Under the pieces are notes generated by a model, which had not been told where the DNA came from, did no database searches, and saw only the letters and a list, made by a program, of their open reading frames with translations. A stretch of 64,000 nucleotides of DNA from NCBI GenBank assembly GCA_016214845.1, contig JACRMS010000003.1, positions 24,110 to 88,109 of the forward strand. The letters run 5' to 3'. Below are positions 1 through 48,424 of this stretch, one piece after another. Each line of letters starts with the position of its first letter. Position 1 is the first letter of the stretch. Position numbers and translations under genes: made by a program. This stretch comes from Nitrospirota bacterium. GTDB lineage: Bacteria > Nitrospirota > Thermodesulfovibrionia > UBA6902.

Positions 1-2
1 CA

Positions 3-533
3 TACAAATGGCAAAACAAGGATGCAAGCAATCATAACGAATACTACGGGGCAATCACTCCCATGACATATGACGGCACCTGTACCATCTGCCATATCGC
101 GCCTATCCCGACAGGCGGGATAAAACCCTCCAGTAACACCATTAGCGCTTTCTGCGGCACATGCCACAGGGCGTTTCATGTTATCAACCAGCTCGATGTG
201 ACACAGGGCATAGGCGATGATACAACTTCGCCGTTCCTTCGGCATCCAACCGATATAGTGATACCAAACAGCGGTGAATATGCTAATTACAATCAGGGAA
301 ATTTAAATCAATACAGCGTAGAGGCGCCTGTTGCAAGAACAACAGTTTCAAGCAGTATAAGCAGTACTGTAACTCCAGGCGCTGATGCTGTTATGTGCCT
401 TTCCTGCCATGTGGCCCATGCCTCCAATTATGCTGATATGCTGAGATGGGATTACAGCGCTATGATTGCCGGAGGCGGAACTAATGGAACAGGATGTTTC
501 ACCTGCCACACGTCAAAAGATGACGGGTCATAA
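3..533 (+). CDS. OmcS-family multihaem c-type cytochrome, C-terminal fragment (5' end lies upstream of the window)
   Basis: Frame 3 is open from the window edge ([16 protein letters not shown]...) to the stop at 531-533. It has four CXXCH motifs (CTICH, CGTCH, CLSCH, CFTCH). By eye it is about 60-65% identical to the C-terminal half of the 14270..15346 product. Confidence 0.85.
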   Translation, partial: YKWQNKDASNHNEYYGAITPMTYDGTCTICHIAPIPTGGIKPSSNTISAFCGTCHRAFHVINQLDVTQGIGDDTTSPFLRHPTDIVIPNSGEYANYNQGNLNQYSVEAPVARTTVSSSISSTVTPGADAVMCLSCHVAHASNYADMLRWDYSAMIAGGGTNGTGCFTCHTSKDDGS

Positions 534-766
534 GCGGTCCTTACTATCCTAAACAAATCATCTTAGCCCACGAATTATCTTGAGTAAATCTTTGACTACT
601 TTATTCGTGGCTTAAGTTTATGACGCCGGAAAATTTAAATTAAACTCATAATGCTATAAGTGCGTTGAATTACGGAGCAATATATTGCTATTATTTATGG
701 CCTAATCTAAAATAACCATATTTTTTCTTTGCGTTTCCAAAAGTCATTGCTTTATTTAGACTCAAA

Positions 767-1753
767 ATGAAAAATTCATGTCTTAATGAAATACATGGAC
801 TGAAGTCAATAGCTAAAAGTCAGAAGCTTGGGACAGGACTTATTTTATTGTGTTTTCTATTTGTTGTTACCGGTCCTCTTTACGCCCAGCAGACCGGCAC
901 CGCTATTACTTACTACGACAGCATAACTTATGATGATGAAGACGGCAGCCTGTCATTTCCATCCGCAGTATTTATAGATCCGGTCATGAATGAAATTTAT
1001 GTAATTGACGGTAAGAGCAGGGTCAATATTTATACATCCGATTTATTCCCCCTTTACTCAATCGGTAAAAACAACGGGATCCAATCGCCGCAGGGATTGA
1101 CCGTCGACTCAGCGGGATATCTTTACGTTGGACAAACCGCGTCGCTTGATAATCCAAGGAACAGGATCTCTGTTTTTAATGCATGCCTTCACTGGGACAG
1201 AGATATTTATTTTGAAGGCTTCGACGGGGCGGATTCATTTGTGCCATACCGCATGGCTGTCGATAAAAAGGGGGTCCTCTACGTGTCCGGCAGCTACTCC
1301 CCGGGCGTTCTGGTCATGGACGGCAAAGGGAAATTCCTCGATATAATTTCTGTGGAAGAGGAAGGAAGGAAGGTCAAAATAAACAACGCCGTCCTGGACA
1401 ACTCCGGGAAACTTTATCTTGTCAGCGAGGAAGAAGGGCGCGTATATGTATATGATGCAAACAATAAAAAAATGCTCTTTAAGTTTGGTGAGAAGGGGGG
1501 GAGTTCAGGCAAACTGAGCCGCCCCAGGGCAGTAGCCGTAGACAACCGGAACGGCAGGATCTTTGTGGTGGATTATATGCGCCATACTGTTTCCGTCTAC
1601 AACAGCGAAGGGACATATATTTTCGAGTTCGGCGGACTGGGCTGGGACGAAGGCTGGTTTCAATTTCCAACGGACATCGCCATTGACAAAGACGGCAAGT
1701 TGGCCGTTGCGGATTTATTTAACAACAGGATACAGGTGTTCAATGCGTGGTAG
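767..1753 (+). CDS. secreted NHL-repeat beta-propeller protein
   Basis: Signal peptide LILLCFLFVVTGPLYA. Repeated NHL-type blades, e.g. PRAVAVDNRNGRIFVVDYMRHTVSVYN and FPTDIAIDKDGKLAVADLFNNRIQVFN. Confidence 0.85.
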   Translation: MKNSCLNEIHGLKSIAKSQKLGTGLILLCFLFVVTGPLYAQQTGTAITYYDSITYDDEDGSLSFPSAVFIDPVMNEIYVIDGKSRVNIYTSDLFPLYSIGKNNGIQSPQGLTVDSAGYLYVGQTASLDNPRNRISVFNACLHWDRDIYFEGFDGADSFVPYRMAVDKKGVLYVSGSYSPGVLVMDGKGKFLDIISVEEEGRKVKINNAVLDNSGKLYLVSEEEGRVYVYDANNKKMLFKFGEKGGSSGKLSRPRAVAVDNRNGRIFVVDYMRHTVSVYNSEGTYIFEFGGLGWDEGWFQFPTDIAIDKDGKLAVADLFNNRIQVFNAW

Positions 1754-3383
1754 AAAAATACGTCGAACAGAAGTCAAGAAGATAAGAAGCTCGGAAGATG
1801 AGAAAAAGGCAACTTCTCAACTTCTCAACTTCTCAACTTCTTCCTTCATTTTTTTTCTTGCCCTCACTGTTTTGTTCCTCCACGGCTGTTCGGCAATCGA
1901 AGCGCAAAGGGCCCCTTCCGATCAATCTAAAGGCCAGGTCACACTTTTTCTGAACGGCCCAGACAAGGTGTCCCAAAATATCACATTTGAATTGTCAGCC
2001 GTAAATATAGTTTCAGAAGAAGGCGTATCAAGAGAGCTCACGAGTGCGCCTTTAAATATTAACTCTGTAGATATCATCGGCCGGCAGGTTGTTCTTGGAG
2101 AGACTTCTCTGCCTGAGGGAAGGTACAAAAAGCTCCGGCTCGTTATAAAAGAGGCGACGATCAAAAGTAAAGAGCGGCCCGCGCGCCTGGCCTTGCCGCC
2201 TGAAGGCGTTGAACTCGCGATAAATATTAGTGTAAAAAGAAAGCAAAGCACAACTTTATTCATTAACTGGAACCCGGACGCTTCCGTTGCCGACGCCTTC
2301 CTCTTCAAACCCGCTGTGACCGTCAAGGAACAGGTACCTGAATTAAGCACATCGCTTATTTATGTAACTAACGAAGATTCAGACAGCGTGTCTGTTATCA
2401 ACAGGCAAACCGAGGAGGTTGTGGCAACGATAACGGTAGGGAGAAAGCCGAGGGGGGTCGCGGCTGTCATGGGCCGGGACCGTCTGAAGGTCTATGTTGC
2501 CAACTCAGGCTCAAACAGCATATCCGTGATTGACCCGACTACGAACAAAGTCGAAAAGGAGCTCCCTATAAGGTTCGGCAAAGAGCCCGAAGGGATAGCG
2601 GTAACCAGCCTGCCTTCAGGGAAGGACCTGATTTTTGTTACAAATTACAATTCCAATTCCGTATCTATGATTGATCCGCTGGCCCTGCAGGAGATGGAAA
2701 AGATCGATGTGGGAAAAGGCCCCATCGCGGTGGCTGTTGATCCGCCGGTTGAGAACCTTCTGGGGACACGGTTTCTCAGCTTTGAGGAGGTCAATATAAT
2801 AAAAGGTTTCCGGGAGAAGTTTTTTAACGTTTATGTTGTCAATAAAAATTCAAACAGCGTTTCCGTGATAATGATGGACTCGCTTACAAGCAAACCTAAA
2901 GATGTTATTACCGTCAACGTGGATTGGAACCCCGTTGCGCTTGCCGTTGATTATCAGAGAGGAAAGGTCTATGTCGCAAATTATAACTCAGACAAACTCT
3001 CCGTCATAGACATCCTGCAAATCATCAAAGGCAATACGACCACGGCGGTAAGCACTATTAATAATCTGGGCGCCTCCATAACAGGGGTAATACCCGAGCC
3101 GTCATTTGACAGAATTTATCTTTTAAAAGAAAGGCCCGGCGAGATAATGATCATAAAGCCCTTCACGGACAGCGCGGCCCAGACTGTAATGCCTCCTGTG
3201 ATGGGAATTATTCCCGTAGGAAGCGCCCCTCGTTCTTTTATTCTGGACTCGGAACTCAGAAAAATATATGTGGTCAACAGAGGGTCTAACAATATTTCGA
3301 TAATCGACAAGACTACAAGAAAGCAGGAGCGTATTATCCCCTCCGGTATGAAACCTTACGGGATAACGATGTTTCCCAAGTAG
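1743..3383 (+). CDS. lipoprotein with an N-terminal DUF4382-like domain and YVTN-type beta-propeller repeats
   Basis: ATG 1743 overlaps the NHL gene stop. Lipobox LHGC. Six or more repeats of the YVTN type (YVTNEDSDSVSVIN, YVANSGSNSISVID, FVTNYNSNSVSMID, YVVNKNSNSVSVI, YVANYNSDKLSVID, YVVNRGSNNISIID). Confidence 0.8.
   Translation: MRGRKIRRTEVKKIRSSEDEKKATSQLLNFSTSSFIFFLALTVLFLHGCSAIEAQRAPSDQSKGQVTLFLNGPDKVSQNITFELSAVNIVSEEGVSRELTSAPLNINSVDIIGRQVVLGETSLPEGRYKKLRLVIKEATIKSKERPARLALPPEGVELAINISVKRKQSTTLFINWNPDASVADAFLFKPAVTVKEQVPELSTSLIYVTNEDSDSVSVINRQTEEVVATITVGRKPRGVAAVMGRDRLKVYVANSGSNSISVIDPTTNKVEKELPIRFGKEPEGIAVTSLPSGKDLIFVTNYNSNSVSMIDPLALQEMEKIDVGKGPIAVAVDPPVENLLGTRFLSFEEVNIIKGFREKFFNVYVVNKNSNSVSVIMMDSLTSKPKDVITVNVDWNPVALAVDYQRGKVYVANYNSDKLSVIDILQIIKGNTTTAVSTINNLGASITGVIPEPSFDRIYLLKERPGEIMIIKPFTDSAAQTVMPPVMGIIPVGSAPRSFILDSELRKIYVVNRGSNNISIIDKTTRKQERIIPSGMKPYGITMFPK
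1768..1848. repeat. purine/pyrimidine word palindrome (GAAG-type words; (CAACTTCT)x3.5) inside the 5' coding end of the YVTN lipoprotein gene
   Basis: agaagtcaagaagataagaagctcggaagatgagaa ... caacttctcaacttctcaacttctcaacttcttcc. It is translated as EVKKIRSSEDEKK...LLNFSTSSFIFF. Confidence 0.8.
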
Positions 3384-3417
3384 CTGGTAGCTGACAGCTA
3401 TTAGCTTACAGCTTATA
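3381..3417. repeat. heptad tandem element (TAGCTGG TAGCTGA CAGCTAT TAGCTTA CAGCTTA)
   Basis: Five consecutive related 7-mers between the stop at 3383 and ATG 3422. Confidence 0.75.
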
Positions 3418-3421
3418 AATT

Positions 3422-5683
3422 ATGAGGAATATAAAATGGAAGATCATAGCGCTGTCAGTAACAGTGATTCTGCTGTGCGGCACTCCCGCATTTACGCAGG
3501 GGCTGAGCGGATGGCTGAATATAATCAGTGACAACTCAAGCGGGTATCAGGACGGGAAAAGGACCTCGGATTCCAGCACATTAAATCAGAATTATTTTTT
3601 AAATTTTGAAAAACCGGTCACTCCAGTGCTTGTTTATCATATTTATCTGAGATCGAACCTGATTGATTCCCGCATCACAGACTCCGCAGGTGAAACGACA
3701 ACCACTTACAGGAGGATGGTGGAGCCGACACTGGACCTCCTGCTGCAGAACCCCGTGTACGATCTTACCGCGGGATACCGCAGGCAGGAAGAGTGGACCA
3801 CCGCGCACCTGCGGGATGAAAGCAGGGAGACCACAGAACTGTATTATTCACGTTTTAATTTAGTCCCCGCTTCACTCCCTTCCTTGTCTATCAACGTAGA
3901 CAGGCTGAGGAATTTCGACTACCTCAGCGTCAGTAAAATTGACCGCACCAATGATGAATATGCCATAAGCTCAACGTATGAACTGCCTTCGCGCGATGTA
4001 AGGTTCAGATATGTTTTAAATTACTCACATAACATAGACAGGGACAAGGCAAGCATAATAGAGAAGACCGTAAATGATAATTTCAGCGGCAACTACAACA
4101 TCGGCTACACGGGGGCGTTATTGAGGGACATGGCAAGCTACTCCCTGCTGTATCAGGGTAATTATTCAAGGAATAAAAGCCGTCAGACCTTTAAGCAGAC
4201 CGGCACCGTAATAAGTAAGCGGACGTCGCTGGGCGGATGGCATAAACATGACGGCATAACGCAGGACCTCGGGACGTTAAACGCTAACGGCTTATTGGTC
4301 GATGAGGACTTTAACGCAAGCGCAGGCATTGATATCGGGGGCGCAAATCCTACCAACAAGCTGCACAATACCGGCATATCGGCGTCATCGCAAAAGACCG
4401 TGGACAGGTTATTTATATATGTATCGTCAAGTACAGACCCGACCGGAGACAGCCTGGACAACGCAGGCAACTGGAGCGTTTTCAGAAGCAACTTCAATCA
4501 GCAAGGGACATGGTCCGAAGTTACTGTTAAAGATGTAAAGGTGACTGCTTTTGACAGGCCCAATAATATATACATCTTCGAGATAGAATTTTTAGGGCCG
4601 CAGGGCGACTCATTTTATAAAGCTGTCAATAACGTGGCTTCCAATATCGGCAGTGTGCTTGTGACTGAAATAGAGGCGTACGGCACTGACGACATCGGAT
4701 CAAAGACCTCTCTGGATGTGTTCACCAGCTTTGAGCAGGGCCTGAATTTTGACGCAAGCGCAAGGCCTTTCACACCATTGACCGTTTCCCTTAATTACTC
4801 ACTGCACAGGTCGGACCAAAACCCCGTATCTCTTACAAATTCTCTCAGGGGAGTTTTTGAAAACATCTACAGCGATTCCCTGCCTGATAATAAAAGTAAT
4901 TTCAGGAGCACTATCTCAAGAAACTACGGCATAGGGGCAACGTGGTTGACGCACCGGTATCTGACTACCATCGCGCGCTATCAAAAAAGCCAGAACTTTG
5001 ATGACCGGGAAGAAACCGATACCGAATTTGACTCTTACAACATTTCTTTTAATTCAGTCCCCCTGCCGACCCTCGACACCACCCTGTCTTATACCAGGAC
5101 CATAAGATATAACTTTGACAAAAAGGATTCCACGACCGACTCTTATCTGCTGAGCCTGGGTTCAAGGCTTTATAAAAACATAAATATGATTACCGATCTC
5201 GGGTATAATCAGACCGATACCATATCGACAAATACAACAACTTCCACTTACTCAATAAACGGCACTGTTGACGCGCGCGTCACACGGCAGGTGTCCAGCA
5301 TCCTCAATTATAATTTAAGCAGGATAACTTCAGACGATAACACCACCGACTCAAAGAACGCCCTTATCATTGTTAACTACCAGCCCGGGCGGTCCATCAA
5401 CATTTCCGGCAATGTAAACTATTTCGGCTCTGAAGAAAGCAAAACCACCTCGGAAGGACTTTCAGTGGATTGGCTGCCGCTTCCCGCGATCAGGTTGAAT
5501 ATGAACTACCTTCACAGCAATACCGACCCCAAGACATCAAAAACCGACAGTATCAACGGTTACGGCATCTGGTATATAACAAAGTTTGCCGATGTCCGTC
5601 TTTCGTCCGGTTACTCAAAAACCATTGAGGACATCAAAACGGAAAATTACAATTTCAACGCAAATTTAAATGTCAGATTCTGA
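3422..5683 (+). CDS. outer-membrane beta-barrel protein with an inserted discoidin (F5/8 type C)-like domain
   Basis: Signal peptide ending PAFTQG. Long stretches of alternating beta-strand pattern. C-terminal aromatic terminus ...NLNVRF. Residues ~275-421 (LLVDEDFNASAGIDIGG ... IFEIEF ... LVTEIEAYG) look like a discoidin fold. Confidence 0.65.
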   Translation: MRNIKWKIIALSVTVILLCGTPAFTQGLSGWLNIISDNSSGYQDGKRTSDSSTLNQNYFLNFEKPVTPVLVYHIYLRSNLIDSRITDSAGETTTTYRRMVEPTLDLLLQNPVYDLTAGYRRQEEWTTAHLRDESRETTELYYSRFNLVPASLPSLSINVDRLRNFDYLSVSKIDRTNDEYAISSTYELPSRDVRFRYVLNYSHNIDRDKASIIEKTVNDNFSGNYNIGYTGALLRDMASYSLLYQGNYSRNKSRQTFKQTGTVISKRTSLGGWHKHDGITQDLGTLNANGLLVDEDFNASAGIDIGGANPTNKLHNTGISASSQKTVDRLFIYVSSSTDPTGDSLDNAGNWSVFRSNFNQQGTWSEVTVKDVKVTAFDRPNNIYIFEIEFLGPQGDSFYKAVNNVASNIGSVLVTEIEAYGTDDIGSKTSLDVFTSFEQGLNFDASARPFTPLTVSLNYSLHRSDQNPVSLTNSLRGVFENIYSDSLPDNKSNFRSTISRNYGIGATWLTHRYLTTIARYQKSQNFDDREETDTEFDSYNISFNSVPLPTLDTTLSYTRTIRYNFDKKDSTTDSYLLSLGSRLYKNINMITDLGYNQTDTISTNTTTSTYSINGTVDARVTRQVSSILNYNLSRITSDDNTTDSKNALIIVNYQPGRSINISGNVNYFGSEESKTTSEGLSVDWLPLPAIRLNMNYLHSNTDPKTSKTDSINGYGIWYITKFADVRLSSGYSKTIEDIKTENYNFNANLNVRF

Positions 5684-5722
5684 TATAATAAGCGGGGTTT
5701 TTTCGAGGTATTATAAATTGTT

Positions 5723-6301
5723 ATGAACAGCTTAATAAGAAAAAAAGTATTCTCCGGCATGGTCATAAGCCTTTGCCTGATTTTCATGTCGGGATGCTCA
5801 GGCAGCATAAAGCATTATGTCAGGCCGAACACCGACGCCGCCAAAATTAAGAAGATCGCGGTGCTGCCGTTTGAGAATTTTACGCCTGATACATTCGCTG
5901 ACAAGAAGGTCAGGAGCCTTGCAATTATAGACCTTCTGTCAAGGGGCCTTGATGTCATAGAACCCGGAGAGGTATTAAAGACCCTGCAGGAGATGAAGGT
6001 GAAATCCGCCCAATCCCTGACCCAGCAGGACATTATGAATATCGGCGAAACCCTCAATGTAGAATCCGTTATGACGGGGTCCGTTGAAGCGTTTGGCATA
6101 AGCAGGGGGATATCGGTTTCCTACCCCGAGGTCTCCGTCAATTTGATGCTGTTTGACGCAAAGACGGGGAAGGTCATCTGGTCGGTATGGCATACCGCGG
6201 GGGGCGCAAGCTTCTGGAGCAGGCACTTTGGGGCCGAGGGGGCCACGCTCGACGAAACTTCAAAAAAAGTAATAAAAGAAGCGATCGATACATTATTTTA
6301 A
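5723..6301 (+). CDS. periplasmic lipoprotein, CsgG/LpoB-like (TolB-N-like) domain
   Basis: Lipobox MSGC. Motif KIAVLPFENFT followed by ...VMTGSVEAFG...VNLMLFDAKTGKVIWS. It is a paralogue of the next gene. Confidence 0.7.
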   Translation: MNSLIRKKVFSGMVISLCLIFMSGCSGSIKHYVRPNTDAAKIKKIAVLPFENFTPDTFADKKVRSLAIIDLLSRGLDVIEPGEVLKTLQEMKVKSAQSLTQQDIMNIGETLNVESVMTGSVEAFGISRGISVSYPEVSVNLMLFDAKTGKVIWSVWHTAGGASFWSRHFGAEGATLDETSKKVIKEAIDTLF

Positions 6302-6317
6302 AAAAAGGAGACGCACC

Positions 6318-6896
6318 ATGAATTCATTTATGAAAATTGTCCCGGTTTCTGCATTACTCATTTTTCTCTTTATTTCAGGGTGTGGCGGCAAAGCCCCGAT
6401 CTATCACATACGTGAAGATATCGATTTCAGTTACTTTAAAAAGGTCGCTGTAATGCCCCTTGATAATCTGAGCAATGATAGAACAGCCGGAGAAGTTGTC
6501 AGGCAGGTGGTCATCAGTGAATTGCTTTCTTCCGGGCTTGTGGACGTTGTGGTCCCCGGGGAGGTAATGGCCGCGGTCAGCGAACTGGATATCAAGAACA
6601 TATCATCCCTGAGTGAAAAACAGATAATGGCCCTCGGCAAGGCCCTGAAGGTTGAGGCGCTTATGATGGGCGCGGTCGAACAATACGGGGAGTCAAGGTC
6701 CGGGAATATTTCCGCCCCTGAAGTAACCATCACATTAATGATGGCGGATGCAGGCACAGGCAATATCATCTGGTCCATTACAACAACCCGCGGCGGCGCT
6801 GGTTTTATGGCGAGGCATTTCGGGGCCAGATCGGAGACCATGAGCGAAACTGTTCTGGCTGCCGTTAGAGAAGCTATCCGAACGCTTGCCAGATAA
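6318..6896 (+). CDS. periplasmic lipoprotein, CsgG/LpoB-like domain (paralogue)
   Basis: Lipobox ISGC. KKVAVMPLDNLSND ... LMMGAVEQYG ... ITLMMADAGTGNIIWS. Same length (192 aa) as the 5723..6301 product. Confidence 0.7.
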   Translation: MNSFMKIVPVSALLIFLFISGCGGKAPIYHIREDIDFSYFKKVAVMPLDNLSNDRTAGEVVRQVVISELLSSGLVDVVVPGEVMAAVSELDIKNISSLSEKQIMALGKALKVEALMMGAVEQYGESRSGNISAPEVTITLMMADAGTGNIIWSITTTRGGAGFMARHFGARSETMSETVLAAVREAIRTLAR

Positions 6897-6904
6897 AAAT
6901 ACAA

Positions 6905-9073: not shown

Positions 9074-10791
9074 GACAGACCTCATTCAACAGTCGTCAGT
9101 CCCTCGAAAAGACCTCAGAAGACAGAAGTCAGAAGACAGATAGCTGCACATATTTTCCCCTCTGTTATCTGTCTTCTATTATCTGTCTTCTGTTATCTGT
9201 CTTCTGTCTTCTGTCATTATGGAGCTGCGCCTCCGCCCCGAAAAAAGAAAAAACAGCGGATGTACTGGCAATTGTGGAGGGCGAGCCGATCACTGAAGGA
9301 GACCTTGAATATTCGCTTGAGATAGCCCACCGGAGAGAAGACCTCTCTTCCGCTAAAGGGATCGATATTTCTCAATATATGCAGAAGCTTGTAGACGACA
9401 GGTTGATTGCAATTGAGGCGAAGCGCGCGGGGGTGGAAAAATACCCGGAGGTGCAGAATAAAATCGAGGCATATATTCTGAGGGAATCGGTTGTAAAGCT
9501 TTATAACGAAGAAATAGAAAAAAAGATAAACGTTAGCGAGGCGGACATAGTTGATTACTACAAAAAGAACAACGAAGAGTTCTCCCTCGGCATAATAGAG
9601 CTCAGCTCTGAAAAGGACGCGCAGGACATTATGGAAAAACTGAAAAAGGGTGAAGATTTCAAAAAGCTTGCTGCGGAGAATTCCACCCATGTTTCAAAGA
9701 AAGACGGCGGAGAAATAACGCTCCAGCGAAGGTCCATGGGGTCATTCTTTGAAGAGGCCGCCTCAGGCCTTAAGCCCGGAGACTTAAGCGGCATCAAACA
9801 AAGCGGAGACAAATACTACATCGTAAAATTAATAAACCGGCAGGAGGCCCCTGAGGAAGGACTTGAAAAGGTCAGGGGGAGCATCGCCGCCCAGCTTAAA
9901 TCACAGAAGGCAAAAGACAGGAGCAATGAATATCTTAGAGACCTGCGCGAAAAGATAAAGCCGAGGATCAACAATGAACTGCTTTCTTCCATTAATTTAA
10001 AAGGCGGAAACGAGGAAAGGGAGAAATGGGCCGGGGATGAAAGGCCCCTGGTCGAGATCGACAGCACGACCCTCAAGGTAAAGGACTTTGTGGCAATGCT
10101 TTCATCAAGCGACGAGAACATTAAAGAGCCTGTCCTTAACCGCTGGATCGACCGGAAACTGGTGGATGTTGAGGCCCTGGCCCGGCATTACGAATTAAAT
10201 TCAGACCTGAAGGACATGCTTCAGCGTTACAAAAACCAGATACTCAAAGATGCCTTCACAAATAAAATGCTCGTGCCGCAAATAAAGATCTCGGACCAGG
10301 AGATGACCGCATACTACTCAGCCCATAAAGAAGACTTTGCAAACCCGCTCAGATATAAGCTGCAGCAGATTACCGTTAAAACAAGAGAAGAAGCTGAGGA
10401 CATTTTAAAAAGTCTGAAAAACGGAGCTGATTTTTCATGGCTGGCAAAGACTAAATCAATAGGTCCGAATGCATCAACCGGCGGGACAACGGACTGGCTT
10501 GTTAAAGAGCAGTTGCCTGCTGAGATAAAAAGCATCATTGACACTCTGAATCCGGGAGACATCGGCCCGGTCGTTGAGGCGGATTCTAATTTTGAGATAT
10601 TCAGATTGCAGGAAAAGACCCCGAAAGAGTTTATAGAGTTCAACAATGTAAAACCTGTCATCCAGAGAAAAGTTTTCATGGAAAAGTTCAAAAAGCTTTA
10701 TGATGAATATCTGGCCAAACTGAAGAAAGACGCCCAGATAACAATAAATGAAGCTGCTGTGGAGTCGTTTAAAAAAATGTTCGGCAAATAA
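9064..10791 (+). CDS. SurA/PpiD-like periplasmic chaperone with two parvulin (PpiC-type) PPIase domains
   Basis: Two parvulin-like segments (...ELSSEKDAQDIMEKLKKGEDFKKLAAENS... and ...VKTREEAEDILKSLKNGADFSWLAKTKS...). ATG 9064 overlaps the upstream stop. A hydrophobic segment with lipobox-like LWSC is encoded by a repeat element, so the start is uncertain. Confidence 0.75.
   Translation: MAIRQTSFNSRQSLEKTSEDRSQKTDSCTYFPLCYLSSIICLLLSVFCLLSLWSCASAPKKEKTADVLAIVEGEPITEGDLEYSLEIAHRREDLSSAKGIDISQYMQKLVDDRLIAIEAKRAGVEKYPEVQNKIEAYILRESVVKLYNEEIEKKINVSEADIVDYYKKNNEEFSLGIIELSSEKDAQDIMEKLKKGEDFKKLAAENSTHVSKKDGGEITLQRRSMGSFFEEAASGLKPGDLSGIKQSGDKYYIVKLINRQEAPEEGLEKVRGSIAAQLKSQKAKDRSNEYLRDLREKIKPRINNELLSSINLKGGNEEREKWAGDERPLVEIDSTTLKVKDFVAMLSSSDENIKEPVLNRWIDRKLVDVEALARHYELNSDLKDMLQRYKNQILKDAFTNKMLVPQIKISDQEMTAYYSAHKEDFANPLRYKLQQITVKTREEAEDILKSLKNGADFSWLAKTKSIGPNASTGGTTDWLVKEQLPAEIKSIIDTLNPGDIGPVVEADSNFEIFRLQEKTPKEFIEFNNVKPVIQRKVFMEKFKKLYDEYLAKLKKDAQITINEAAVESFKKMFGK
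9115..9216. repeat. heptad palindrome (CAGAAGA-type / TCTTCTG-type arms) inside the 5' end of the PPIase gene
   Basis: cagaagacagaagtcagaagacagatag ... ctgttatctgtcttctattatctgtcttctgttatctgtcttctgtcttctgtc, with 7-nt periodicity on both arms. Confidence 0.85.
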
Positions 10792-10829
10792 CACACTATG
10801 ATTTAATGTTTTATCGGCAAAGCTAAAAA

Positions 10830-12827
10830 ATGGACCTCCTACATAATCAAAGGCAGAAGGCAGAAGGCAGAAGGCAGAAAAACAAAAACTTCATCCTTCA
10901 TCCTTCATCCCTCATTCTTGTACTTTTATTTGCCGCCCTTGTCACATGCGCTCCTGAACAGAAGGTAAAAAAGGGCTTCGCCCCGAAACCGTGTATGGAT
11001 TGTCACCAGGAAAAACAGGCTGACTTCACCAAGAAGTTCGTGCACGCCCCGATGGCAGGCAATGATTGTGAAGCCTGTCATCTGCGTCACGGCAAACTCG
11101 CTGTCAAGTCTTTTGTGGAAAGGGAGGAAGACAAGCTTTGCTACATTTGCCATAAACAGATGGCGGCTGATATGGAAAAGGCGGCCAATGTCCACACAGT
11201 CCTGAAGCAGGGCAAATGCATACCGTGTCATAATCCTCACGCGTCAGACAATAAATCCCTCCAGGTAAAAACAGGAAGCGAGCAATGCTTTGCATGCCAC
11301 GATAAAAGTTCTTTTATGCGCGCCACGCGTCACAAACCCCTTGATGACGGCTGCCTTAACTGCCACAGCGCACATGCCTCTCCGTATAAATATAATCTCG
11401 TTAAGGAAGAGGGCGAGCTTTGCCGCTCCTGCCATGATTATAAAGCCCCCTCCTTTGCATCCGCGCATAAGGACTATCCTGTGGAACAGTCAAAATGCTC
11501 AGGCTGTCATGCCGCTCACAGCTCTACAAATGACAAATTGCTGAGGGAATCTGTTCATGAGCCGTTAGCACTCGGACAGTGCTCCTCCTGCCACAAACCG
11601 GCAACCGGTCCGGACGCGTTGAAGACAATCGCATCGGACGGTAAGCTCTGTTATACCTGCCACGCAAAGGAAGAGAAGAAATACAGCGCGGCTTACAGGC
11701 ATCCGCTGACGGACCAGGGAAAGTGTCTGACCTGCCATGACCCTCATGCAACTGATTATCCAAAGATCACACTTATGAAAAATAAAGAGCTTTGCACAAA
11801 CTGCCACAAAGATAAACCGAAGATCGACGTAAGTTATTTACATAAGCCGATAAAGGAACAGGGCTGCATTGCCTGTCACAATCCGCACGCCTCCGCAAAC
11901 CGCTTTTATCTGATCGCATCTGAGAAACAGATATGCTTTTCCTGTCACCCGCAGGTCGAGAAGGATCTGCAAGACCCCTACAAGCATGAGCCGTTTTCCA
12001 AAGTTGAATGCGCAAAGTGTCACGATTCACACGGCTCCAATAACTTTGTTATGTCTAAAATACCATTGACTGAATTATGTTATACGTGCCATGACAAGAA
12101 CAAGTACCTCAAGGCCTACGTTCATACGCCTGTAGCAAAAAGACAATGCGGCGCCTGCCATAAGGCCCATACCTCGCCTTACGCGGGACTGCTGAATACT
12201 CCCTACGAACAACTGTGTACAACATGTCACAACAATATGTATGCAGACATTAAACCGGAAGGCACACACCCGTTGTTCAGGGACAAAAATTGCAAGGCCT
12301 GCCACGCCCCTCACGCGAGTGATTTCATCGCGTCAACCGTAAAACCTGAAAAAGAACTCTGCTACGAATGTCACAAAAGCCTGGAGTCAAAAGTACAAGC
12401 CGGCACCCACAAACATCTCCCGGTGGAAGAGGGCAAGTGCACATCATGCCACAGCCCCCACGGGACAAAGCTCAGGTTCCAGCTCCTTGACCGGACAAAC
12501 GAACTTTGCCTCTCATGCCACGAGAGAATAGTCACTACAAAAATAAGGAAGGGACATATATCAATGGAAGGCGGGGATTGTTTGAGCTGTCATACTTCTC
12601 ACTATTCTGAAATAAAAAGTCTGCTCAGCGGAAAAGACCCCGCGCTGTGCACCAAGTGTCACACAGTTGATACGGAAAGGCTGTTGAAGGCGCACAGACA
12701 ACCCGTAAATAAAATCGATCACTGTACAACCTGTCATCTGCCCCATGTGACGGAAAAACCCGGGCTGCTTAAAAATATCATGCATACACCTTTTACCGAG
12801 GGGCGCTGCGAGGCATGTCATGAATAA
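10830..12827 (+). CDS. multihaem c-type cytochrome, 26 CXXCH motifs
   Basis: I counted 26 canonical CXXCH motifs spaced about 20-25 aa apart, often as C..CH.PH.S. N-terminal signal/lipobox-like LVLLFAALVTC. Confidence 0.9.
   Translation: MDLLHNQRQKAEGRRQKNKNFILHPSSLILVLLFAALVTCAPEQKVKKGFAPKPCMDCHQEKQADFTKKFVHAPMAGNDCEACHLRHGKLAVKSFVEREEDKLCYICHKQMAADMEKAANVHTVLKQGKCIPCHNPHASDNKSLQVKTGSEQCFACHDKSSFMRATRHKPLDDGCLNCHSAHASPYKYNLVKEEGELCRSCHDYKAPSFASAHKDYPVEQSKCSGCHAAHSSTNDKLLRESVHEPLALGQCSSCHKPATGPDALKTIASDGKLCYTCHAKEEKKYSAAYRHPLTDQGKCLTCHDPHATDYPKITLMKNKELCTNCHKDKPKIDVSYLHKPIKEQGCIACHNPHASANRFYLIASEKQICFSCHPQVEKDLQDPYKHEPFSKVECAKCHDSHGSNNFVMSKIPLTELCYTCHDKNKYLKAYVHTPVAKRQCGACHKAHTSPYAGLLNTPYEQLCTTCHNNMYADIKPEGTHPLFRDKNCKACHAPHASDFIASTVKPEKELCYECHKSLESKVQAGTHKHLPVEEGKCTSCHSPHGTKLRFQLLDRTNELCLSCHERIVTTKIRKGHISMEGGDCLSCHTSHYSEIKSLLSGKDPALCTKCHTVDTERLLKAHRQPVNKIDHCTTCHLPHVTEKPGLLKNIMHTPFTEGRCEACHE
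10850..10918. repeat. heptad repeat pair (AAGGCAG)x4 ... (CATCCTT)x3 inside the 5' end of the 26-haem gene
   Basis: aaggcagaaggcagaaggcagaaggcagaaaaacaaaaacttcatccttcatccttcatccctcattctt. Confidence 0.85.
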
Positions 12828-14136
12828 GAGCAGAAGTCAGAAGTCAGAAGTCAGAAGTCAGAAAAATGCAAAGCAAGTCTTTTATTCCACTATCCTGACC
12901 ATCTGTTTTATGCTTATTTGGTTTTCAGCAGTCAATGTGGGAGAGGTTAATGCTGAAGCAAGATTAAAATCAAAGATACCGGACCTGTGTTACGACTGTC
13001 ATAAAGAGCTGAAGAAGAACCTGTCGGCAAAGTATGTGCACTTTCTTTTTAAAGACGGGAAATGCATTACCTGTCACAATTCTCACGTAAGCACTATCAA
13101 GGGATTGATGAATGACGACATAAATTCCATTTGCCTGAGCTGCCATGAGAACCTCAGGAACCTTATCCGCAAAGGCATTGTGCACCCCGCGCTCAAGGAA
13201 AGCTCATGCACCGGGTGCCATAACGCGCACAGCAGCGAATACAACCATATTTTGATCGGAGAGGAAAAAACGCTTTGTAAAAATTGCCATGAGAAACTGA
13301 AGGAGCAATTTGAAAAACCCCATGCCTGTCTTCCGTTCAAGGACGGGAAATGCTCCGAGTGTCATAATTCTCACGCGTCAACTGAAGAGGGCCTGCTGCT
13401 TTCTTCATCAAACAAGCTGTGTCAGAAATGCCATCAGCCGCGCTGCAAGGCGGGTGAGGTTTCCATATCGGCTATGGTTAAAGATTCGGATTGCACATCA
13501 TGCCACACAGGGCACAGCTCAAGGACCAAGGGGCTTCTCGGCCCTTACGGCCATACTGATTTCTTAATCAGGAATTGCGAAAAGTGCCATAATCCAATTA
13601 CTGCAAACGCTAAGATCACCAGCCGGCTGGAAGGCCAGGCGCTTTGTTTCAGCTGCCACAAAAAAGAAGCTTCAAAATATAAATATATCGACAATGACGT
13701 TCATGTAAAAAACGTTAAGAATCCCTGCAATATTTGCCATGACTATCACGGGTCAAGAAAGAAAAACCTTACAAAAAACGAAAAGAAAATTTGTAACGGT
13801 TGTCATGAAGGCACGGAGAAAAGGACTGCATCCATGGAGAAGGCTTTAAAGACGGTGAGATGTGCGCCTGTTAGAGACAGGAAATGCTTTGAATGCCATA
13901 TACCGATGCACTCCGACAGGCCGTTCAATTACATAGATGATGAAGACCTGATGTGCGCCAGGTGTCACGAATCTCAGCATAAGATCACCCATCCTATCGG
14001 CGCTACTGTGATAGACCCCCGCAATGGAAAGCCTGTTACCTGCACTTCGTGTCATAGTATGCATTCTGCCATGGCCGAGTTTCTGCTCACTGCCGACAGA
14101 AACAGGGCGCTTTGCATACAGTGTCATAAAATGTGA
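12820..14136 (+). CDS. multihaem c-type cytochrome, 16 CXXCH motifs
   Basis: I counted 16 CXXCH motifs. The ATG overlaps the stop of the 26-haem gene (ATGAATAA). Signal peptide ...FMLIWFSAVNVGEVNA. Confidence 0.9.
   Translation: MNKSRSQKSEVRSQKNAKQVFYSTILTICFMLIWFSAVNVGEVNAEARLKSKIPDLCYDCHKELKKNLSAKYVHFLFKDGKCITCHNSHVSTIKGLMNDDINSICLSCHENLRNLIRKGIVHPALKESSCTGCHNAHSSEYNHILIGEEKTLCKNCHEKLKEQFEKPHACLPFKDGKCSECHNSHASTEEGLLLSSSNKLCQKCHQPRCKAGEVSISAMVKDSDCTSCHTGHSSRTKGLLGPYGHTDFLIRNCEKCHNPITANAKITSRLEGQALCFSCHKKEASKYKYIDNDVHVKNVKNPCNICHDYHGSRKKNLTKNEKKICNGCHEGTEKRTASMEKALKTVRCAPVRDRKCFECHIPMHSDRPFNYIDDEDLMCARCHESQHKITHPIGATVIDPRNGKPVTCTSCHSMHSAMAEFLLTADRNRALCIQCHKM
12829..12862. repeat. heptad tandem repeat (AGTCAGA)x4 inside the 5' end of the 16-haem gene
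   Basis: gagcagaagtcagaagtcagaagtcagaagtcagaaa. It is translated as SRSQKSEVRSQK. Confidence 0.9.
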
Positions 14137-14195
14137 CGGTTGTCAAAAGCTATAGACTATCTGCCCCATTTTCTTGACCGTATTCAAAAAATATT

Positions 14196-14211
14196 TGGCA
14201 TAGTAATTGCA
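14196..14211 (+). promoter_or_regulatory. candidate sigma-54 (-24/-12) promoter of the OmcS-like gene
   Basis: TGGCATagtaaTTGCA matches TGGCAC-N5-TTGCW with one mismatch. It lies ~60 nt upstream of ATG 14270. Confidence 0.55.
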
Positions 14212-14269
14212 GAAATATGCAAAAATATGCAGATGATTTATTATATATAAAGGACTTTGTTGTAAGCTG

Positions 14270-15346
14270 ATGAAATTAATAAAATACATATCTGTTTTAT
14301 TTGCGGCCTTATCAGTCCCGCTTTTTGCGGGTGTGGCAATTTCCGCTATAAGCGGCAATTGCAGCACGTGCCATACAATGCACAACAGCCAGAACGGTTC
14401 GGCAATGGCAACGTACGGCACAGGGACCTGGCAAGGCACAGGTCCTTATGAAGCATTGACCCGCGGCGACTGCATCGGGTGCCATGCATCAGGAACAAGC
14501 AGCAACATTGACGCGGTAACAGGGGCGCCGCAGGTATATCACACAGGCGCCTCGGATGATCTGGCAGGCGGGAACTTTGCCTATATATTGGGGAACAAGG
14601 GCAGCGGGGCCGCTGATTACAAAGGGCATAATGTGGTTGAATTCGGCAACTTGGAGGACACACTGGCTGGCCCGCCCGGACATCATGATCCCATGAATAT
14701 AGGAGTCAGCATCACGTGCTCGGGGATATTCGGCTGTCACGGCACACGTGCATCTTCTGTCCATTTTAAAGGCGCTCACCACAAAAATGTAGACGGCAGA
14801 TGCGATACCGCAAGCGATGTTTACGACAGCTACCGCTTCCTTAGAGGTGTAAAGGGATATGAAAATAACGGCACGTATAAATGGCAAAACAAGGACGCGA
14901 ACAATCACAACGAATACTACGGAGCAGCAACTCCCATGACTTACAGCAGCAACTGCAGTATCTGTCACACCCCGAACGGGATACAACCTACAAATAATAC
15001 GATCAGCGGGTTCTGCGGCACCTGTCATAGAGAACTGCATGTGACTGACGGGATTGGCGGAGATACGAGCTCTCCTTTTACCAGGCACCCGACCGATGTG
15101 GTGCTGCCTAACAGCGGCGAATATGCAAGCTATACATCTTACAGTGTAGTAACCCCCGTTGCGAGAACAACGGTTGCCAGCTCTATCAGTAATACTGTAA
15201 CTCCGGGCACTGACGTTGTCATGTGCTTGTCCTGTCATGCAGCACATGCCACGGATAATTACAAGATGTTAAGATGGAACTATAAAAGCGCGACACTTTC
15301 AACGGCCATATCCGGCTGTAATGTTTGTCACACAAGCAAGAATTAA
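14270..15346 (+). CDS. OmcS-family multihaem c-type cytochrome (6 CXXCH plus one CX5CH)
   Basis: Signal peptide, then [20 protein letters not shown]. Further matches to my recollection of OmcS: GGNF...[16 protein letters not shown]...[18 protein letters not shown] and C-terminal CNVCHTSKN. Confidence 0.8.
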
Positions 15347-15348
15347 CT

Positions 15349-17154
15349 ATGAACAAAAAGCCTGTCACAGAGAGAAAAGAACAAAGAACGATGCCGGGGT
15401 TTGAAAACTTGAAGATATGGAAAAAGTTTATAAGAGGTTCCCTGTGCTCTATGCCCTATGCTCTATGCCCTATGCTTTTTGCTCTTTGCTTCCTTCTGGC
15501 TGCCGAAGGTTTCGCCGGGACATACATCCAGACAAAGCACGGTACATCTGCCAACCGCTCTGTAGTCACCGCCGGCTATGCATACACTACACTGGGGCAT
15601 TGCGGGCACTGCCATGAACAACACGCAAGCATCGACGGAACTGAACCGACCCTTCCTGCTTCTGAGGGGGCTTCATCGTATGCCTTGTTCATGTCTAACT
15701 ATGGGGCCAGCAGAAACGAACTCTGCTTTGCCTGTCATGAGACATTTACCATATCAGGCATGACCCTCGGTTATGGAAGCTACGGTATCTATCAGGGGAA
15801 GACAAAATATAATGCCTCAATTCACTACTCAAGCGCCGGCATGAAATGGACACCCGATGCTTCGCCTCCGGGGCCCTCATATCCAAGCGGCGACGCGGGT
15901 AATTGTCATAACTGCCACGATCCTCATGGGTATAACGCCACCGCAGGCGGCGCTCCGTATGCGTCAATGCTCTTTGCTCTGGACTCGGCTACAGGAGATA
16001 GTCCCGCTTATGAAATGGGATGCGAGGCGTGTCATGACGGAACACAAGGCGGCGTGACAAAAGATGTAAAAGCACAGTTAAATAAAACCTACGCCCATCC
16101 AACGCATACTTATAATAACCGCCATACCCTGCCTGAAACCGGACAGCCCGGCGGAACAAGTTTCGGCCCGGCAGCAACCAACAGACATGCAGAATGCGTT
16201 GACTGCCACAACCCGCATACAGTAGTCAGCGGAACAACGCATACGGAAGCCACATCGGGCAACGCGGTGTCTGATGTATTAAAATACGTTTGGGGCGTTG
16301 AGCCGACATGGACCGCGATCTGGACCCAGCCGACATCATTCACAGTCAGGAAACCGCCAACATATAATGACGGCAGCCAGTATGAATACCAGATATGTTT
16401 CAAATGCCATTCCTATTACGGACTCGGCACATTAACAAACGGGGTCTCAACGATCACCGGCCCATCCGGCACCGCGATTACAGACCAGGCGTGGGAGTTC
16501 AATCCAAACAACAAATCCGCCCATCCTGTGGCTGTAACATTAAATAACCAGACAGGTTCGGATGCAACAAAGGCACTGGCATCTTCACAAATGTCTTCTC
16601 CATGGACAAGCGTTGGAATACAAACCATGTACTGCTCCGACTGTCACGGGGCAGACAACGAAAGCTCGGCTGCAAATGGCCCGCACGGCTCAGCCAGAAA
16701 ATTCATGCTCAAAGGCACCGGACAATATTGGCCGTACAAATCTGACGGGACTACGATGTGGAGGTTAAATACAACAGACGGCGCTGACTCAAACCTATTC
16801 TGCAAGAACTGTCATCCTGTTTATTCAGGAGGCACCTGGAAAAATAATGTCCATAGCAATGGCAATCATAACAGCGGCAGCCTGACGATAAACGGACAAG
16901 CAGGAACAGGTACGCCTTGTGTATCCTGCCACCTGGTGGTTTCTCACGGAGGCAAACACTCAAGGCTGATAGCTTACGGATATCAGGCAGCGTCGCCGGA
17001 TGTATCTCCCTATATAATCAACGCGAATACTGCGCTGCTGAGAGGATTCAGAAAAGCGGCAACAACCAGCTATACGGAAACATATTGCTATTCTACGTAC
17101 AGCGCGTGTAACAACCATACTTCTTCGACCTGCGGCAGCAGCTGCGACCCTTAA
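15349..17154 (+). CDS. multihaem c-type cytochrome, 9 CXXCH motifs, Cys-rich C-terminus
   Basis: ATG lies 2 nt after the upstream stop. The hydrophobic signal segment LCSMPYALCPMLFALCFLLAAEGFAG is encoded by a heptad repeat. Nine CXXCH motifs. C-terminal YCYSTYSACNNHTSSTCGSSCDP. Confidence 0.85.
   Translation: MNKKPVTERKEQRTMPGFENLKIWKKFIRGSLCSMPYALCPMLFALCFLLAAEGFAGTYIQTKHGTSANRSVVTAGYAYTTLGHCGHCHEQHASIDGTEPTLPASEGASSYALFMSNYGASRNELCFACHETFTISGMTLGYGSYGIYQGKTKYNASIHYSSAGMKWTPDASPPGPSYPSGDAGNCHNCHDPHGYNATAGGAPYASMLFALDSATGDSPAYEMGCEACHDGTQGGVTKDVKAQLNKTYAHPTHTYNNRHTLPETGQPGGTSFGPAATNRHAECVDCHNPHTVVSGTTHTEATSGNAVSDVLKYVWGVEPTWTAIWTQPTSFTVRKPPTYNDGSQYEYQICFKCHSYYGLGTLTNGVSTITGPSGTAITDQAWEFNPNNKSAHPVAVTLNNQTGSDATKALASSQMSSPWTSVGIQTMYCSDCHGADNESSAANGPHGSARKFMLKGTGQYWPYKSDGTTMWRLNTTDGADSNLFCKNCHPVYSGGTWKNNVHSNGNHNSGSLTINGQAGTGTPCVSCHLVVSHGGKHSRLIAYGYQAASPDVSPYIINANTALLRGFRKAATTSYTETYCYSTYSACNNHTSSTCGSSCDP
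15444..15492. repeat. heptad repeat (ATGCCCT/ATGCTCT alternating) inside the 5' end of the 9-haem gene
   Basis: gtgctctatgccctatgctctatgccctatgctttttgctctttgcttcc. A near-identical copy lies at 18153-18193. Confidence 0.85.
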
Positions 17155-17160
17155 ATCAAA

Positions 17161-18066
17161 TCAGAATTTGTCCTTGTGACACGCCACGCAGATTTGTAAA
17201 TTCCTCCCGGCAAGACGAAGCCTGTACTTCTCGCTGGCCCCCTGTGCGCTCGGTTTTTCTCCGGGGATGATCCCTTTTTCATGGGGATTGTGGCAGGTAG
17301 GGCAGGTGATTTTCCCTTCATAATTCAACGGCAGAATTATCCCGTATTTCTTTTCCGACTCCTTCATGGTCATCAGCGTCTTGTCGGATGGTTTGCGCAG
17401 GTGGTTGGCATTTATGGGATGAAGCTGGCTTTGTTTATAGTGGCATCTGAAACACAGCACCTCAAGGTCCCCTATGAGCTTGACTTCCTGGAAGGTCGCG
17501 CGTTTTTCATCAGGTTTTTCAGTATGGCAGTATAAGCATTTATCAATAATAATGGCCCCTGCCTCATTTATCTGATTATGCGGGTCCAGCATCGTGTATT
17601 TTTTCTCGTCATGGCACCTGAAACAGAGCATGGTGCGGCTTACATAAGGGGCGCCCCTTAAAAACCTTTTGTTTAATGACAGGGCGCGGGGATTAAGCTG
17701 GCATTGCAGATACATGTCATGGCATGTAGGGCAGGACACCTTGCCGCCCGGCAGCGGGAAGTCTTTCGGGATCTTGGCCTTTTTTTCTTCCGAGGGGACT
17801 ACTTCTACTGGATGAATGTATGTGCCGGTTGTGTACCCGTGACATTTGCACAGCTGCGTGTAATCTCCGCCGAATTTCAGGAAAGTGTCTCCGCCTTGCT
17901 GGGGCGTCTTCTCGTGGCACTCCGTGCAATATTTTCCTGTGAAGTGAAGGTCGGTTGTTTTAGAAACGCCGTTATTTCCGTTATTGCCGTTTTTTTCTTT
18001 TTCCTCGGCAAACAGGAAAAGACAAGGGAAAATTATCAGGATGATTACAAGGACAATTTTCTTCAT
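17161..18066 (-). CDS. multihaem c-type cytochrome, 7 CXXCH motifs
   Basis: Signal peptide MKKIVLVIILIIFPCLFLFA. Seven CXXCH motifs plus one CKCH. Convergent with the 9-haem gene. Confidence 0.85.
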   Translation of the reverse strand: MKKIVLVIILIIFPCLFLFAEEKEKNGNNGNNGVSKTTDLHFTGKYCTECHEKTPQQGGDTFLKFGGDYTQLCKCHGYTTGTYIHPVEVVPSEEKKAKIPKDFPLPGGKVSCPTCHDMYLQCQLNPRALSLNKRFLRGAPYVSRTMLCFRCHDEKKYTMLDPHNQINEAGAIIIDKCLYCHTEKPDEKRATFQEVKLIGDLEVLCFRCHYKQSQLHPINANHLRKPSDKTLMTMKESEKKYGIILPLNYEGKITCPTCHNPHEKGIIPGEKPSAQGASEKYRLRLAGRNLQICVACHKDKF

Positions 18067-18114: not shown

Positions 18115-18150
18115 AAAAAAAGAGGCGCGGGTAATCCCCGTGCCTCTTTT
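18115..18150 (-). terminator. intrinsic terminator after the amino-acid binding-protein gene (possibly bidirectional)
   Basis: The minus strand reads AGAGGCACGGGG-atta-CCCGCGCCTCT followed by TTTTTTT. The plus strand also has a short T-run after the stem. Confidence 0.7.
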
Positions 18151-48418: not shown

Positions 48419-48424
48419 GGATTG

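Follow-up and report, generated by a model that had tools for sequence, protein, structure and literature searches.

The first 18,066 positions of a 64,000-nucleotide stretch of DNA from a Nitrospirota bacterium (assembly GCA_016214845.1, contig JACRMS010000003.1, positions 24,110 to 88,109; the whole stretch is referred to as the window) were analyzed as a candidate locus for extracellular cytochrome filaments. Together with the 2.8 kb of DNA directly upstream, this region probably encodes three OmcS-family cytochromes of a divergent clade and a conserved set of accessory proteins. Judged by homology and gene order, the accessory set is of the type of the osc (omcS-companion) operon of Geobacter sulfurreducens (Shen et al. 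2025, cited via PMC13194489). The locus is thus quite likely to be an osc-type export and assembly system for the OmcS-family cytochromes of a groundwater Nitrospirota/Thermodesulfovibrionia-like bacterium. A preliminary description, made from the sequence alone, had read the region as a production and assembly locus for filament cytochromes, and this overall reading is supported by the similarity to OmcS and by the synteny of the accessory genes.

Gene order and synteny of the cluster

The open reading frame (ORF) listing and the translations gave 12 co-directional genes (3..17154) followed by one convergent gene. N-terminal signal peptides or lipoboxes, judged by eye from the translations, were visible in all 13 products. 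The thirteen adjacent genes for exported proteins named in the preliminary description were thereby recovered at the same coordinates, and its total of 64 canonical CXXCH motifs in the complete cytochrome genes was reproduced by counting (26, 16, 6, 9, and 7 in gene order, Table 1).

Roles have been published for the osc gene products: folding for OscH, secretion for OscE, OscF, and OscG, and morphology for OscD. GSU2501, GSU2495, and GSU2494 correspond to oscC, oscI, and oscJ, respectively (Shen et al. 2025, via PMC13194489). The earlier remark that no mechanism is established for the assembly set is therefore out of date. An eight-gene block, GSU2500-2493, always follows a GSU2501-type gene (bioRxiv 2025.11.06.686851), and GSU2495 is described as a protein of ~70 kDa with 26 haems. 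The features that mark an osc cluster were found in the window, namely a propeller at the OscD position, genes at the OscE, OscF, and OscG positions, an OscH-type peptidyl-prolyl isomerase (PPIase), and a 26-haem OscI followed by a cytochrome at the OscJ position.

Conservation of this set was analyzed at 78 genomic loci encoding proteins 49-67% identical to the solved OmcS (OmcS-proper loci) and at 80 loci encoding cytochromes of the window clade, each with flanks of 10 kb. Homologues of the window accessory proteins were found in the same order at the OmcS-proper loci: the NHL protein at 53, the YVTN protein at 67, the ~750-aa (amino acid) barrel at 25, the ~200-aa lipoprotein at 60, the ~400-aa LpoB/CsgG-like protein at 55, the PPIase at 48, and the 26-haem cytochrome at 35, the last count being limited by the 10-kb flank. 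The YVTN homologues lie directly downstream of the OmcS-type genes, with E values down to 1e-47. For the 26-haem cytochrome, E values reached 2.7e-143 against the ORFs that follow the PPIase gene, and 23 complete homologues carry exactly 26 CXXCH motifs. Collinear loci are present in the cultured strains Citrifermentans bremense R1, Geomonas oryzae S43, and Geotalea sp. SG265, and the OmcS-proper loci also include one of cultured Anaeromyxobacter sp. PSR-1. Significant homology was obtained for every member of the equivalent block in other Geobacterales, Myxococcota, Nitrospirota, and other metagenome-assembled genomes (MAGs). The expectation, set out in the preliminary description, that the accessory genes are conserved beside OmcS homologues was thus borne out in dozens of genomes.

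The nearest genome is a groundwater Nitrospirae MAG (L081/L083) with 92% identity and an identical order of 15 genes. Clade cytochromes beside the same block were also found in other Thermodesulfovibrionia, a Thermosulfidibacter MAG, Pelovirga terrestris, Hydrosulfovibrio ferrireducens, and Desulfovibrionaceae/Desulfobulbaceae MAGs; a literature search on H. ferrireducens returned nothing useful. The generic or missing Pfam annotation of several members might suggest that unrelated exported proteins and generic multihaem cytochromes lie side by side by chance, without forming a functional unit. This explanation is refuted to the point of a negligible probability, because the same order of 8-10 genes recurs beside OmcS-family genes in more than 100 loci of several phyla.

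The claim that the locus is complete did not hold. The locus is cut by the window edge and starts ~2.0 kb before window position 1, because a third OmcS-like paralogue of 403 aa lies upstream in a public contig (L001) that is 100% identical to the window across a 9,211-base overlap. The order in L001 is divergent rpsO, a 600-bp intergenic region, the 403-aa paralogue, and P0018, the protein whose 3' coding end opens the window. The full P0018 gene is located at L001 2211-3368, and ORF 3..533 corresponds to its residues 210-385 with 100% identity (tblastn). On the other side, the cluster is limited by the convergent 7-haem gene and then by a strong hairpin. The terminator count in the window was only ~2 standard deviations above that of shuffles, and this hairpin alone was used. 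No family was matched by an Rfam scan of the window.

The GC content of the cluster (0.45-0.50) equals that of the rest of the window; the cluster is therefore not compositionally foreign, and a horizontally acquired "island" was rejected. The coding-strand AT skew was 0.19-0.20 at 6001-14000 (the OscG-like, PPIase, 26-haem, and 16-haem genes) and at most 0.13 elsewhere in the cluster, which is consistent with the Lys/Glu-rich composition of the encoded proteins rather than with a compositional island.

Table 1. Genes and sequence elements of the cluster and its surroundings. Positions are those of the window unless L001 is named.
Feature	Position	Strand	Evidence or remark
Perfect sigma-54 motif TGGCAC-N5-TTGCA	L001 820-835	+	69 nucleotides (nt) upstream of the first paralogue
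Third OmcS-like paralogue, 403 aa	L001 904-2115		~2.0 kb upstream of window position 1; heads the cluster, after divergent rpsO
OmcS-like cytochrome A, 3' end (176 codons + stop)	3..533	+	Full protein P0018, 385 aa, 6 CXXCH + CX5CH
NHL-repeat beta-propeller, signal peptide	767..1753	+	Pfam NHL, E=1.3e-17; corresponds to the NHL gene beside omcS-type genes
YVTN beta-propeller lipoprotein, N-terminal DUF4382; OscD position	1743..3383	+	TIGR02276 YVTN repeats, E=3e-55
Predicted outer-membrane beta-barrel, 753 aa, C-terminal Phe; OscE position	3422..5683	+	AlphaFold2 model, Foldseek
Lipoprotein, 192 aa, OscF-type copy 1	5723..6301	+	Pfam GNA1162-like, E=2.4e-9; lipobox MSGC
Lipoprotein, 192 aa, OscF-type copy 2	6318..6896	+	Pfam LpoB, E=3e-5; lipobox ISGC
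OscG-position protein, 722 aa	6905..9073	+	C-terminal Pfam CsgG, E=3.7e-9, and LpoB
Double-parvulin PPIase, SurA/PpiD type, probable lipobox; OscH position	9064..10791	+	Rotamase_2, E=5e-36, two stretches
Periplasmic 26-haem cytochrome, 665 aa; OscI (GSU2495) position	10830..12827	+	26 CXXCH
16-haem cytochrome, 438 aa; OscJ (GSU2494) position	12820..14136	+	16 CXXCH, gene order
Sigma-54-type -24/-12 motif TGGCATAGTAATTGCA, one mismatch	14196..14211	+	59 nt upstream of OmcS-like B
OmcS-like cytochrome B, P0001, 358 aa	14270..15346	+	6 CXXCH + CX5CH; profile match to OmcS
9-haem cytochrome, ~601 aa from ATG at 15349, low haem density	15325..17154	+	9 CXXCH
Convergent 7-haem cytochrome, 301 aa	17161..18066	-	7 CXXCH
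Palindromic hairpin, 14-bp stem, T/A runs on both sides	18118..18150		Downstream cluster boundary
Other TGGCAY-N5-TTGCW motif	19153-19168	-	Intergenic
Candidate regulator, NtrC-type sigma-54 activator	19243-20646	-	Translation
Candidate regulator, sensor histidine kinase	20778-22172	-	Translation
Other TGGCAY-N5-TTGCW motif	44871-44886	+	Intergenic

OmcS-family cytochromes of a divergent clade

The two products of the window that had been described as OmcS-like paralogues, P0018 and P0001, are 60% identical to each other, and the 403-aa paralogue is 40% identical to P0001. A profile of 34 family members matched OmcS (6EF8/6NEF) with E=3.3e-13 over OmcS residues 8-359. In an hhalign comparison with 76 genome-derived OmcS-type sequences, a probability of 99.9% and E=1.3e-32 were obtained over 280 aligned columns. 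The proposed relationship of the 14270..15346 product to OmcS was thereby upheld, and the homology of P0001, detected by profile methods only, is real but remote.

The alignment places P0001 C31-x-x-C34-H35-T-M-H38 on OmcS C9-x-x-C12-H13-T-M-H16 and P0001 C319-L-S-C322-H323 on OmcS C328-L-S-C331-H332, and both motifs are invariant in the 34-sequence alignment (A1). In a 114-sequence clade alignment, H38 is retained in 98% and 91% of two subgroups and the haem-5 motif CLSCHxAH in 100%. OmcS His16 and the haem bound at C328/C331/H332 are reportedly the partners of the inter-subunit haem ligation (Wang et al. 2019). An inter-subunit His-haem bond in OmcS filaments is also stated in PMC12307469. 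Residues that would be relevant to polymerisation are thus conserved in the clade, a conservation that does not in itself prove polymerisation.

All OmcS-like ORFs of 158 fetched loci were further scored with hidden Markov models (HMMs) of both groups, the clade and the OmcS type. The scores split cleanly with no intermediates, and the window proteins scored 288-605 bits against the model of their own clade and 45-70 bits against the OmcS model (P0018, 604 and 45 bits, respectively), so that the window cytochromes belong to a clade separate from OmcS. A CX5CH motif was found in 106 of 135 clade ORFs and in none of 141 OmcS-type ORFs. This motif sits at the haem-3 position, and the motif offsets are 0/37/119/218/288/319 for the P0001 type and about 0/38/131/231/324/397 for OmcS. 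The commonest architecture in the clade, to which the 403-aa paralogue belongs, has five CXXCH and one CX5CH, that is, six sites. Compared with the six CXXCH of the OmcS arrangement, five positions keep CXXCH, haem 3 is CX5CH, and P0001 and P0018 gain an extra site, and the clade members are therefore regarded as OmcS relatives in a distinct subfamily rather than as OmcS orthologues.

The seventh C-Xn-CH site of P0001 and P0018 is located at residues 229-233, 20 residues before the haem-4 motif. A C-Xn-CH at this place, with n = 2 to 6, is present in 59 of the 114 aligned clade sequences. In the same alignment, it covaries with His139 (88% versus 16%) and His91 (97% versus 47%), the pattern expected of a seventh haem with its own distal ligand. 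With six CXXCH and one CX5CH, P0001 is a putative heptahaem protein, in which both the CX5CH and the seventh site would be occupied by haem. Full-text literature searches for OmcS-like together with heptahaem returned nothing.

One clade cytochrome, 40% identical to P0001 and preceded by a sigma-54-type motif, was observed in a contig binned as Candidatus Methanoperedens (L151, CAYSLW010000147). Its presence in the bin of a methanotrophic archaeon could reflect a binning error or a transfer from bacteria.

Accessory proteins, proposed assembly, and candidate regulation

Domain searches agreed with the preliminary calls of an NHL propeller, a YVTN propeller, and a double-parvulin chaperone (Table 1). 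NHL homologues were found at 24 of the 80 clade loci. The start codon of the YVTN gene was taken from the L001 gene call. Of the three CsgG/LpoB-like lipoproteins proposed before, all three have the domains and two have the lipobox, whereas the 722-aa protein is membrane-anchored and has no lipobox. Of the two 192-aa copies, the second matches best the single lipoprotein of ~200 aa that is encoded at 60 of the 78 OmcS-proper loci (E down to 8e-37); a second OscF-type lipoprotein is typical of the clade loci, whereas the OmcS-proper loci carry one. In the OscG-position protein, a membrane anchor at the N-terminus is followed by a spacer of ~390 aa, rich in Lys, Pro, Ala, Val, and Glu by composition, and then by two LpoB/CsgG-like domains at the C-terminus. 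The spacer varies in length between relatives, with 605 aa given for the 92% identical one, and it may act as a periplasm-spanning tether. A search of the OscG-like gene for tandem repeats was negative.

The 753-aa protein, for which a barrel had already been proposed, is a very large outer-membrane barrel according to structure modelling. Its AlphaFold2 model, built from 49 homologues, had a mean pLDDT (predicted local distance difference test) score of 90. The barrel has ~28-30 strands, which are long and antiparallel, and a beta-sandwich is inserted at ~residues 260-425. No Pfam or NCBIfam match was found for this protein, and its family profile had no sequence match in the PDB. The best Foldseek match of the model was MtrB (6R2Q_B, E=4.6e-10). 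TonB-dependent receptors and usher pores ranked next, and the TM-scores (template modelling scores) of 0.2-0.4 indicate generic similarity only. The beta-sandwich insert contains a conserved VTEIEAYG motif. A distant homologue of the barrel (P0203) is annotated with an F5/8 type C (discoidin) domain, PF00754, which suggests a carbohydrate- or surface-binding module on the channel.

The preliminary list of cytochromes with 26, 16, 9, and 7 haems stands as far as the motif counts are concerned, but the link of the 7-haem gene to the cluster is weak, the gene being kept in the 92% identical relative (L081) and in only 6 of 80 related loci. The 16-haem cytochrome has homologues at the same position in 18 clade loci. 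The pair of OmcS-like B and the 9-haem cytochrome after OscJ is kept in 19 of 80 clade loci and is absent from the OmcS-proper loci. The 9-haem family has more than 2000 unnamed members, found in Nitrospirota, Bacteroidota, Ignavibacteria, Anaerolineae, Campylobacterota, and Actinobacteria MAGs. A profile of this family weakly matched the 16-chain entry 9YUQ (putative multihaem cytochrome c, E=5e-6) and 7TFS, which we take to be OmcE (E=1e-3), with a best domain i-E of 0.055; these matches are too weak, and homology of the 9-haem protein to OmcE-type chains is not claimed. In phmmer searches of the PDB, the 9-haem and 7-haem proteins had motif-level matches only.

From the observed homology, gene order, motif conservation, and barrel fold, a secretion and assembly route is proposed by homology with the G. 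sulfurreducens osc system. The cytochromes would be exported by Sec and loaded with haem in the periplasm, where the double-parvulin lipoprotein at the OscH position would fold them. They would pass the outer membrane via the ~28-30-strand barrel at the OscE position, assisted by the LpoB/CsgG-like lipoproteins (two of OscF type) and the inner-membrane-anchored protein with the Pro-rich spacer at the OscG position. The YVTN lipoprotein at the OscD position and the NHL propeller would act on the surface polymer, and the 26-haem and 16-haem cytochromes at the OscI and OscJ positions would bridge the periplasm electrically. The extracellular protomers would probably polymerise head-to-tail, with the last His of CxxCH-T-M-His, the equivalent of His16, ligating haem 5 of the next subunit.

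Several points weigh against this route and against the assignment behind it. The Osc letters were assigned by gene order and secondary citations, and the block was compared with that of Geobacterales other than G. sulfurreducens. The accessory block lies within 10 kb in only ~30 of the 80 clade loci. A phmmer search of P0001 against all PDB chains gave no OmcS match at E<=10. The AlphaFold2 model of P0001, built from the 34-sequence alignment, was unusable (pLDDT 52.5), and Foldseek on this model returned only noise. Full-text literature searches for CX5CH, the motif assigned to haem 3, found nothing. The physiological role of OmcS filaments is itself disputed (PMC13194489), and in Geobacter only OmcS is known as a filament, whereas its paralogues OmcT, OmcJ, and GSU2501 are not (bioRxiv 2025.11.06.686851).

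That the Geobacter paralogues are not known to form wires, that the clade is very divergent from OmcS, and that MtrB of MtrCAB is the closest structural neighbour of the barrel would all fit a porin-cytochrome conduit, in which the barrel sheathes the 26-haem and 16-haem cytochromes in the manner of MtrB and MtrA and the OmcS-like proteins are monomeric surface reductases or oxidases that never polymerise. The TM-scores to MtrB are low, however (0.36/0.40), and generic large barrels score similarly. Moreover, the 26-haem protein (~665 aa) is far larger than MtrA-type inserts, the His16 equivalent and the haem-5 motif for inter-subunit ligation are near-invariant in the 114 clade sequences, and the homologous block is reported to be necessary for maturation and secretion of OmcS nanowires (PMC13194489 and bioRxiv 2025.11.06.686851). 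A conduit of this kind is therefore considered improbable. Assignment to the Mtr-type conduit class was rejected, with no decahaem MtrA/MtrC-type genes among the cytochromes (26, 16, 9, 7, and 6(+1) haems) and no PDB sequence match of the barrel profile.

The osc-type reading leaves room for either direction of electron flow. The same hardware might serve electron uptake, with filaments that draw on a syntrophic partner, a mineral, or Fe(II) as the electron source for anaerobic respiration. Such a role has been proposed for OmcS-like cytochromes in the sulfate-reducing partners of methanotrophic archaea, and cytochromes of the clade are encoded by many Thermodesulfobacteriota/Desulfobulbaceae MAGs, as well as by Guaymas MAGs. 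Sulfate reduction is typical of Thermodesulfovibrionia, which also counts for uptake. Against it, no feature of the window fixes the direction of electron flow, and no sulfate-reduction genes were present among the ORFs examined. Uptake is regarded as possible but rather doubtful; it bears on physiology rather than on what the locus is, and it can stand beside the osc-type reading.

A more specific proposal is put forward only tentatively. The clade cytochromes might form a structurally new OmcS-related nanowire with a CX5CH-bound haem 3. Roughly half of the clade, P0001 and P0018 among them, would in addition bind a seventh haem at the variable C-X2-6-CH, with a covarying His as its ligand. 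Such a nanowire would be exported via the ~28-30-strand barrel and expressed from sigma-54 promoters, and its 9-haem partner would possibly be a second filament or an anchor.

With regard to regulation, the four TGGCAY-N5-TTGCW motifs are all intergenic and lie 47-100 nt upstream of start codons in the correct orientation; two precede OmcS-like genes, and a sigma-54 motif was also found upstream of the adjacent SBP gene. Among 116 clade cytochrome genes, 21 have the motif at most 400 nt upstream of the first haem codon (background, 0.005 per 400 nt), and these account for 21 of all 29 occurrences in the 2.3 Mb searched on both strands. Only 1 of 117 OmcS-proper genes has a sigma-54 motif. The count of sigma-70 promoters in the window equals that of shuffles. 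Transcription of the cytochrome genes is probably sigma-54 dependent. In the translations of the two candidate regulators, a receiver domain, an AAA+ sigma-54 interaction module, and a helix-turn-helix were read for the activator and HAMP/HisKA/HATPase for the kinase, and this pair (19243-22172) may control the cluster.

Elsewhere in the window, a respiratory module was observed at 45512-52652 (+). It includes a Rieske subunit carrying a twin-arginine translocation (TAT) signal and a molybdopterin subunit with a Rieske-3Fe-4S N-domain, which resemble the arsenite oxidase AioBA. Downstream come another Rieske protein, cytochrome b, a 230-aa membrane protein, and a 682-aa cytochrome in which eight CXXCH and four domains of the class-I cytochrome c type were recognized. 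Radical-SAM genes with DUF3641, at least two in number, are present at 25018-27122 and 31334-33151 (+) (starts 25018 and 31334), one of them fused to a CMD (carboxymuconolactone decarboxylase-like) domain. A radical-SAM domain with DUF3641 is the architecture of ArsS-type enzymes of arsenosugar synthesis. By translation, ORF 26157-27122 has an N-terminal sequence similar to the DUF3641 radical-SAM genes, and a small ORF at 43182-43574 (+) resembles an ArsR-type regulator by eye. These genes may mark an arsenic-related region.

Significance and comparison with known systems

Among models of biological electron transport over micrometre distances, filaments of the OmcS type are the best studied. 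Their companion machinery has been defined only recently and in Geobacter alone, and here each of its genes has a counterpart in a groundwater Nitrospirota lineage. Conservation is much stronger in the accessory proteins than in the cytochrome cargo, and the osc block is a better marker of candidate nanowire cytochromes than similarity to OmcS. The cargo appears to tolerate non-canonical haem sites (CX5CH and the variable seventh site), which bears on the number of haems per wire subunit. The question is made testable by the cultured clade carriers H. ferrireducens and P. terrestris.

Partial likeness was found to several known systems. The three proteins at the OscF and OscG positions match the Pfam models of curli CsgG and LpoB/GNA1162, but with modest scores (E 1e-5 to 1e-9) that cover one small domain, and there are no CsgE/F/A/B partners. 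In the OmcZ-OzpA-prolyl isomerase operon, a periplasmic prolyl isomerase is likewise encoded with a filament-forming cytochrome and is needed for OmcZ production; OmcZ, however, belongs to an unrelated octahaem family, is matured by the protease OzpA, and lacks the barrel and lipoprotein block. As in MtrCAB (MtrB, 6R2Q), a very large outer-membrane barrel is encoded among multihaem cytochromes. The window barrel differs from MtrB in having no sequence similarity, a low TM-score, more strands, and an inserted beta-sandwich, and its partners are LpoB/CsgG-like lipoproteins and a PPIase instead of an MtrA/MtrC pair.

With OmcS itself (6EF8/6NEF), the window cytochromes share full-length profile homology, the N-terminal CxxCH-T-M-H, the haem-5 CLSCHxAH, haem motifs 1, 2, 4, 5, and 6 in the same order and at about the same spacing, a low haem density, and a high Gly content. 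The precursors of the window clade are shorter (358-403 aa versus about 430-440), haem 3 has CX5CH and not CXXCH, P0001 and P0018 have a seventh C-Xn-CH, and the clade is known from sequence alone.

The closest counterpart is osc (GSU2504-GSU2493). Both clusters contain, in order, OmcS-type paralogues, the NHL protein, the OscD propeller, a ~750-aa protein, an LpoB-like lipoprotein, a ~400-aa LpoB/CsgG-like protein, the prolyl isomerase, the 26-haem cytochrome, and a second large cytochrome. In the window, the cytochromes come from a separate clade, the OscF-type lipoprotein is duplicated, the OscG-type protein has a ~390-aa Pro/Lys-rich spacer, and an extra pair of an OmcS-like and a 9-haem cytochrome follows OscJ. 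The system type and its spread across phyla have already been published, and the locus is no new category. It differs from what is known in its Nitrospirota host, in its divergent cargo clade with the CX5CH and seventh sites, and in the sigma-54 motifs upstream of its cytochrome genes.

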